Shown here: piece after piece, positions 13,068 to 13,084 of the stretch
Layout of the letters: the number at the start of each line of letters is the position of its first letter
Position numbering within the stretch: the first letter of the stretch is position 1
Assembly: GCA_907165135.1 (NCBI GenBank)
Contig: CAJRAX010000008.1
Coordinates: forward strand, 46,604-110,603
Source: Oikopleura dioica
Lineage: Eukaryota > Animalia > Chordata
DNA: 64,000 bases
Reading direction: 5' to 3'
Notes under the pieces: model-generated
What the model saw: the letters and a program-made list of their open reading frames with translations, nothing else
Databases searched by the model: none
Told to the model about the DNA's origin: nothing
Position numbers and translations under genes: made by a program

Positions 13068-13084
13068 CCCTGGCGTGGCCATAC
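13068..13084 (+). other. 17-nt conserved motif at the PPT position (CCCTGGCGTGGCCATAC)
   Basis: Abuts the 3' LTR. Homologous 17-mers occupy the same position in all five elements. Confidence 0.75.

Follow-up and report, generated by a model that had tools for sequence, protein, structure and literature searches.

The Ty3/gypsy LTR elements of this Oikopleura dioica satellite array carry, at the position of the polypurine tract (PPT), a conserved motif of about half pyrimidines whose last base adjoins the 3′ LTR. Our verdict is that the elements belong to a known family, the Tor elements of Oikopleura, but that they appear to represent a real clade-wide departure from PPT priming. These Tor-type elements lack a PPT, and on balance the 17–18 nt from CCC to the LTR probably serve as a non-purine, RNase H-resistant plus-strand primer. 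The role in priming is suggested by the position of the motif.

The five elements and their Tor relatives

The window analysed here is the whole stretch of 64,000 nt, the background of which is a 170-bp satellite array interrupted by five Ty3/gypsy LTR elements (A to E; Table 1). Satellite sequence was continuous across the empty sites of the five elements, and perfect 5-bp target duplications flanked each of them (5 of 5). With LTR pairs at least 99.4 % identical (1–5 mismatches per pair) and target duplications of this kind, the elements are, to judge from their sequence, young and recently active. Their inverted LTR termini follow the pattern TRAT...ATCA, and the LTR starts with TA in place of TG in A, C and E. 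Elements A and E form a single family (LTRs 95 % identical), so the window represents four independent families rather than five, with C and D related to A/E. Element B is the most divergent family (RT-RH 52 % to A); gag and pol lie in two frames each, and nothing in its LTR could be aligned with the LTRs of the other window elements. An internal deletion in element D takes out part of RT, RNase H and the integrase core.

The pol order PR-RT-RH-IN of the window elements is that of Ty3/gypsy elements, and no further ORF of at least 150 aa (an env-like third ORF) was detected in A, B, C or D. In element A, pol terminates 67 nt upstream of the motif. The pol protein extends approximately 550 aa past the integrase core (11350–13000 in A), and the last 240 aa of this extension are retained in the deleted element D. 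A Pfam search of the integrase tails gave no match above cut-off, and the C-terminal extension is a candidate targeting domain. In the window elements and in many relatives, the gag frame has its first ATG at, or no more than 8 nt from, the 5′ LTR end, where it overlaps the primer-binding site (PBS; 7282–7292). RNA reads matching element A numbered 16, 17, 1 and 0, which is too few for the definition of transcript ends. The DNA contigs broke off at the A-run next to the motif.

The named close relatives of the window pol proteins were Oikopleura dioica proteins. The pol of element A shared 56 % identity over 1546 aa with AAT48675, the Oikopleura dioica Tor pol, and 67 % over RT-RH. A quick tree built from 78 RT-RNase H rows (midpoint root; D and L040 were absent because the region is missing) placed A, B, C, E and AAT48675 in a single clade with an SH-aLRT of 100; the sister of this clade was a distant one to which env-bearing elements also belong. 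The window elements were treated, on this sequence evidence, as env-less members of the Oikopleura Tor radiation. They share gag-pol and the order PR-RT-RH-IN with Tor elements (AAT48675; available part of PMC4402516) and differ from Tor3 and Tor4b, which bear env. The terms 'PPT' and 'polypurine' are absent from the available part of PMC4402516. A search of the literature on Oikopleura polypurine tracts, Tor elements and PPT-less or atypical-PPT gypsy elements found no description of the motif, which earlier Tor work (Volff et al. 2004, PMC4402516 supplement) may mention.

Relatives comprised 79 loci from one metagenome scan, 31 of which reach the end of pol or env; a search of viral contigs yielded no relatives. 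The junction dataset consisted of 27 junctions, five from the window and 22 from these loci, with L030 (a duplicate of L011), L001 and L043 (junction at contig start) excluded.

Table 1. Features of the five elements and of the surrounding satellite array. Positions are those of the window; TSD, target duplication
Feature	Position	Strand	Remarks
Element A	6233..14133	+	LTRs 6233-7281 and 13085-14133 (5 mismatches); TSD ATAAC
A, gag	7266-8402	+
A, pol	8324-13000	+	PR-RT-RH-IN; no env
A, 17-nt motif	13068..13084	+	PPT position; putative plus-strand primer; 3′ LTR starts 13085
A, PBS	7282..7291	+	Directly after 5′ LTR; short, degenerate; tRNA-Arg-type by comparison with relatives
A, CHHC insertion in RNase H	10277..10324	+
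A, conserved LTR block TGGYCACATAGTGRGAAG	13823..13840; also 6971-6988	+	Also in C, D and E, absent from B; proposed contact partner; own covarying 4-bp hairpin
Element E	49263..57145	+	LTRs 49263-50308 and 56100-57145; TSD ATGAC; pol frame broken after 54752
E, 17-nt motif	56083..56099	+	3′ LTR starts 56100
E, PBS	50309-50318	+	Counterpart of the short degenerate site of A
E, CHHC insertion in RNase H	53304-53351
Element C	29444..37379	-	LTRs 37379-36307 and 30517-29444; TSD GTTAT; gag and pol frames open
C, 17-nt motif	30518..30534	-	3′ LTR starts 30517
C, PBS	36297..36306	-	10/10 complementary to tRNA-Arg(UCG/UCU) tail in available PMC13524379 supplement
C, CHHC insertion in RNase H	33267-33314	-
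C, 3′ UTR box AAAAGAWKCTC	30546..30556	-	Second box, variably spaced; in 14 of 27 junctions
Element D	38750..44366	-	LTRs 44366-43339 and 39777-38750; TSD GTCAT
D, 17-nt motif	39778..39794	-	3′ LTR starts 39777
D, PBS	43329-43338	-	Same tRNA-Arg tail, one mismatch and one wobble
D, 3′ UTR box AAAAGAWKCTC	39807-39817		As in C
Element B	15157..24579	-	LTRs 24579-23026 and 16707-15157; TSD TGAAT
B, 17-nt motif	16708..16724	-	3′ LTR starts 16707
B, PBS	after 23026	-	Nearer Ser-GCU tail
B, CHHC insertion in RNase H	within 19889-19942	-
Target duplication, A	6228-6232
Target duplication, B	24580-24584
Target duplication, C	37380-37384
Target duplication, D	44367-44371
Target duplication, E	49258-49262
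B-type LTR, first 117 nt, copy 1	1423-1536
B-type LTR, first 117 nt, copy 2	5328-5442
B-type LTR, first 117 nt, copy 3	37512-37626
B-type LTR, first 117 nt, copy 4	47010-47118
B-type LTR, first 117 nt, copy 5	58112-58226

The motif at the 3′ LTR junction

An earlier note on this DNA, made from the sequence, had placed a 17-nt motif directly upstream of the 3′ LTR in each of the five elements. All five 17-mers were verified at these positions and on these strands, with the last base adjoining the 3′ LTR. The LTR limits were set independently of the motif, from LTR-to-LTR identity and target duplications. The further claim that the elements have no PPT, and that a conserved motif takes up the plus-strand primer position instead, was supported and extended far outside the window.

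No purine tract of approximately 10 nt or longer abutted the 3′ LTR at any of the 27 junctions. Purine runs ending no more than 5 nt from the LTR were only 1–2 nt long in all 27, and the last 15 nt before the LTR contained 7–10 purines and 5–8 pyrimidines. The longest upstream purine run ended 17 to 50 nt before the LTR and was without fixed sequence. The earlier note had named shifted LTR limits together with priming from an upstream purine run as the finding that would speak against its claim, with a run in element B as an example. That run ends 27 nt upstream of the LTR, and shifted LTR limits are ruled out by the target duplications.

A pattern derived post hoc from the motif had exactly five matches in the window, at these sites, with a mean of 0.075 for 200 shuffles. 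When a weight matrix was applied by leave-one-out, the element's own site was top in 13 of 13 elements with scores of 16–26 bits, while the next distinct site scored no more than 10.3. A second (central) copy of the motif was not detected by weight-matrix scanning, which found one copy per element on the sense strand only. Among loci reaching past the last ORF, the motif occupied the same place in 17 of 18 from the close clade and six of 13 from the distant clade. The start of CCC lay 17 nt before the LTR in 13 junctions, 18 nt in 10 and 15 nt in two, with GCC or CCT in place of CCC in the remaining two of the 27. The body of the motif was clade-specific, resembling GGYCAYAS in the close clade but not in the distant one, such that CCC is the constant part. 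These positions carried 1.25–1.63 bits compared with 0.08–1.05 bits upstream (14 non-redundant close families), and the GRYC core was self-complementary (GGCC, GGTC or GATC) in all 21 close-clade motifs.

The junctions of the relatives were initially located by a motif-based pattern, and the retest used only the inverted repeat of the LTR far end. In the 26 loci for which a PBS was called, this motif-blind test put the single best LTR start immediately behind the motif in 10 and a tied best start there in seven, while the repeat was placed elsewhere in seven loci and nothing was found in two. The boundary of L048 was picked by likeness. The motif was not recognised in L024, L038, L039, L047, L050, L051 or L053; in the distant clade, six loci were without a clear junction and one was without sequence past the stop. 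For outgroup gypsy elements, a candidate purine tract followed by TG was present after pol in five of 21 loci, most of the others being incomplete.

The LTR itself contains a purine-rich tract at approximately +12 to +35 (13097–13119 in A), with 68–84 % purine per 6-nt bin. This tract is downstream of the LTR edge and so could not set the LTR start.

Proposed plus-strand priming and alternative readings

The D-E-D-D catalytic residues of RNase H were all kept and aligned with those of Ty3, and damage to RNase H as the cause of PPT loss is ruled out by these four intact residues. The domain contains an insertion with the residues C-x(n)-H-x-H-x3-C (CHHC), a pattern from which a zinc site is predicted. 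Among clade proteins, 53 could be parsed (10 could not) and 51 had the insertion; of the outgroup proteins, 50 could be parsed (seven could not) and none had it. One of the two clade proteins scored as lacking it retains the residues around a longer loop. Counted by locus, the insertion was found in 42 of 48 parsed clade loci and in all 21 parsed motif-bearing loci. The six clade loci without it constitute one subclade, and the motif was recognised in none of them. A structure model placed the insertion between strands 2 and 3 of the RNase H fold (mean pLDDT 81; loop 65–75) and matched CaMV and Ty3 RT structures, while the ESM Atlas returned generic RNase H clusters only. The word 'zinc' does not occur in the main text of PMC13524379. 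Locus L053 lacks the CHHC loop, yet its purine runs between the last ORF and the PBS are no longer than 7 nt; thus the loop is not required for PPT loss. The association between loop and motif is one or two evolutionary events rather than a set of independent contrasts.

In LTR replication, the start of the plus strand sets the left LTR end (available sections of PMC5371799), and the primer is therefore expected to end at the 3′ end of the motif or a few bases upstream. The motif part of the genomic RNA would be left intact by RNase H, with cleavage at the 3′ end of this part, and second-strand synthesis would then begin at the LTR edge. The motif may survive as a stable G+C-rich RNA/DNA hybrid amid A+T-rich neighbours, and a co-evolved RT/RNase H may recognise this hybrid. 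Within 150 nt on either side, the most stable 17-nt RNA/DNA hybrid had its end 0–9 nt upstream of the LTR at 20 of the 27 junctions, these being related rows, and the stability peak lay elsewhere than the motif in the other seven. According to the available sections of PMC3185511, PPTs do not share a consensus and evolve together with their own RT. Ty3 RT fails to cut the HIV PPT correctly (PMC3185511 and PMC5371799, available sections), and on DNA duplexes it is without sequence preference (PMC3407194, available sections). The G+C-island hybrid, the intact RNase H and the consensus-free, RT-specific nature of PPTs are the grounds on which the motif is read as a non-purine primer in its own right. 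The published PPTs described in the available sections of PMC3185511 are all-purine or have a single pyrimidine. With 5–8 pyrimidines per 15 nt against one at most, RNase H resistance of the motif would not be explained by known rules.

The CHHC loop is a candidate for recognition of the motif, although a speculative one. A more far-reaching reading, which we put forward tentatively and regard as rather doubtful, is that a zinc-finger loop newly inserted in RNase H reads the CCC-anchored, pyrimidine-containing hybrid and spares it as the primer, that no PPT occurs anywhere in the Tor radiation and that LTR retroelements thereby possess a second route of primer selection.

A tRNA might provide the plus-strand primer as well as that of the minus strand. 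The motif would then mimic a tRNA-Arg-type 3′ end, and another tRNA molecule, either intact or trimmed, would pair with the minus-strand DNA. The tRNA tails used for comparison were from the available supplement of PMC13524379 and may not be the host's own set. PBSs were short and variable, with LTR-to-PBS spacers of 0–4 nt; that of L016 matched the tRNA-Arg tail at 12 of 12 positions and that of L015 matched the tRNA-Trp tail. The close-clade core GTGGYCA resembles the same tRNA-Arg tail, TCGTGGTCGCCA, and the G/A and T/C variation within the core is of the kind tolerated by wobble pairing. However, this tail annealed better than shuffles (P≤0.05) in only five of 27 junctions, its terminal CCA was paired in four of 27 and, at the position where CCA requires C, 15 of the 21 close-clade motifs carry T. 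The six distant-clade motifs failed to match the tail (−3 to −7.5 kcal/mol), and the four distant-clade loci with a PBS in the contig had a strong tRNA-Arg-type PBS, yet an unmatched motif. The type of PBS varies (Arg-, Trp- or Ser-like) and the motif does not follow it. Dual tRNA priming is considered unlikely. Searches for tRNA genes found none in the window and none in 58 relative loci, and a search of Rfam produced six weak matches, all far under the gathering score.

Somewhat less likely again is priming within the 3′ UTR, which is A-rich (48–56 % A at −48 to −19), with the motif forming a long terminal overhang that is recognised or trimmed by integrase or another nuclease. A purine run of at least 5 nt immediately before CC(C) was present in nine of 27 junctions, and the variable spacers between LTR and PBS suggest that processing tolerates variable overhangs. 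Against this, the run before CCC was 0–3 nt in 18 of 27 junctions, including all five window elements, and the longest purine run has neither a constant distance from the LTR nor a fixed sequence. We know of no retroviral integrase that trims 17 nt, and this was counted against an overhang.

The earlier note also proposed a long-range contact, on the grounds that the 3′ half of the motif is complementary to TATGGYC in the LTR block of A, C, D and E. The complementarity is real, at 7–9 pairs, with B lacking the block; evidence for a contact was not forthcoming. Pairing of the motif with this block, or with itself as a wobble palindrome, might position or protect the primer or aid dimerisation. 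In the alignment of motif and block, 130 of 151 cells can pair, pairing is complete in the four core columns (17 of 17 rows) and one core column includes G-C, G-U and A-U, and the self-complementarity of the GRYC core is likewise in keeping with such pairing. However, none of the nine columns was double-changed relative to the commonest pair, whereas the same LTR bases fold into a local hairpin in which all 68 cells pair and two of four columns are double-changed. The block occurred in 17 of 27 junction sets, with variable outer stems, and four of the 16 full LTRs retaining the motif lacked it. The best duplex of the motif with its own element was not above shuffles in 12 of 13 cases, and any pair of TGGYCA words can pair, so that a match costs little. 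Although a contact might occur in the close clade, it cannot explain the motif generally; we regard it as improbable, and the least probable of these readings.

Mini-hairpins, also described in the earlier note, do fold in single sequences, but their registers differ and six of 27 junctions have none, so they are not conserved; RNAalifold found no shared pair in 18 aligned junctions. A separate conserved stem-loop is located in the LTR at 6699–6735 and 13551–13587, with copies in C, D and E. Both sides of its stem change between families, and it had no Rfam match.

Self-priming of the Tf1 type, which is a minus-strand matter, was rejected because complementarity between the PBS (8 nt) and the LTR block was confined to A and E and absent from C, D and B. 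Pairing between PBS and motif, strong in A and E by inspection, was not retained in the other elements, and a likeness to what we take to be the 5′ end of 5S rRNA was dropped because the T variants break the match. A run of C residues before the Ty3 PPT would, if present, identify the motif as a decayed PPT of the Ty3 type; it was not used in the analysis. The complementarity between PBS and LTR block in A and E is alike to that in Tf1-type self-priming (available sections of PMC5371799 and PMC2864245).

Insertion sites and comparison with known elements

Within the 170-bp satellite unit, all five insertions were confined to 14 bp, where they occupy three sites in both orientations, and on the + strand each of the five target duplications begins with AT. 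The chance of this clustering is approximately 0.0002 if sites are uniform, which suggests satellite targeting or a strong target-site preference. Five fragments comprising the first 117 nt of a B-type LTR have common junctions, indicating that they were amplified along with the satellite array. These fragments occupy another position in the satellite, and the insertion hotspot is not the sole site. The satellite stops at approximately 63601 and is followed by another repeat, which is G+C-rich, about 114 nt long and has an inverted arm (63600–64000). The centromeric ATHILA retrotransposons, as described in the available part of bioRxiv 10.64898/2026.03.20.713144, likewise belong to Ty3/gypsy and lie in satellite arrays, and they too have TATCA ends and LTR-internal junctions that are conserved, but they keep a PPT whereas the window elements do not.

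Comparison with Ty3 (available sections of PMC5371799, PMC3185511 and PMC11381356) revealed a primer site, known or putative, directly upstream of U3 in both systems and a short PBS that is not restored from the tRNA. The RNase H fold and catalytic residues are also the same. For Ty3, correct cutting needs the cognate RT (PMC5371799 and PMC3185511, available sections). The Ty3 PPT consists of 12–14 purines, whereas the Tor-type site has 7–10 purines per 15 nt and starts with CCC, and the RNase H of Ty3 is without the CHHC insertion that Tor-type RNase H carries. The PPTs of HIV-2 and of Mason-Pfizer monkey virus contain one pyrimidine (available sections of PMC3185511) in contrast to 5–8 per 15 nt here. 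The presence of a pyrimidine in these viral PPTs indicates that an all-purine primer is not obligatory.

How RT chooses one RNA fragment as the plus-strand primer is unsettled, and the usual explanation is purine content. A large and recently active clade in which the putative primer site is approximately half pyrimidines, and in which RNase H carries a distinctive insertion, would constitute a natural pair of substrate and enzyme. Annotation tools that require a PPT will miss or misdraw Tor-type elements. The Tor pair could be used to test whether purines, hybrid stability or protein contacts decide the choice of primer.
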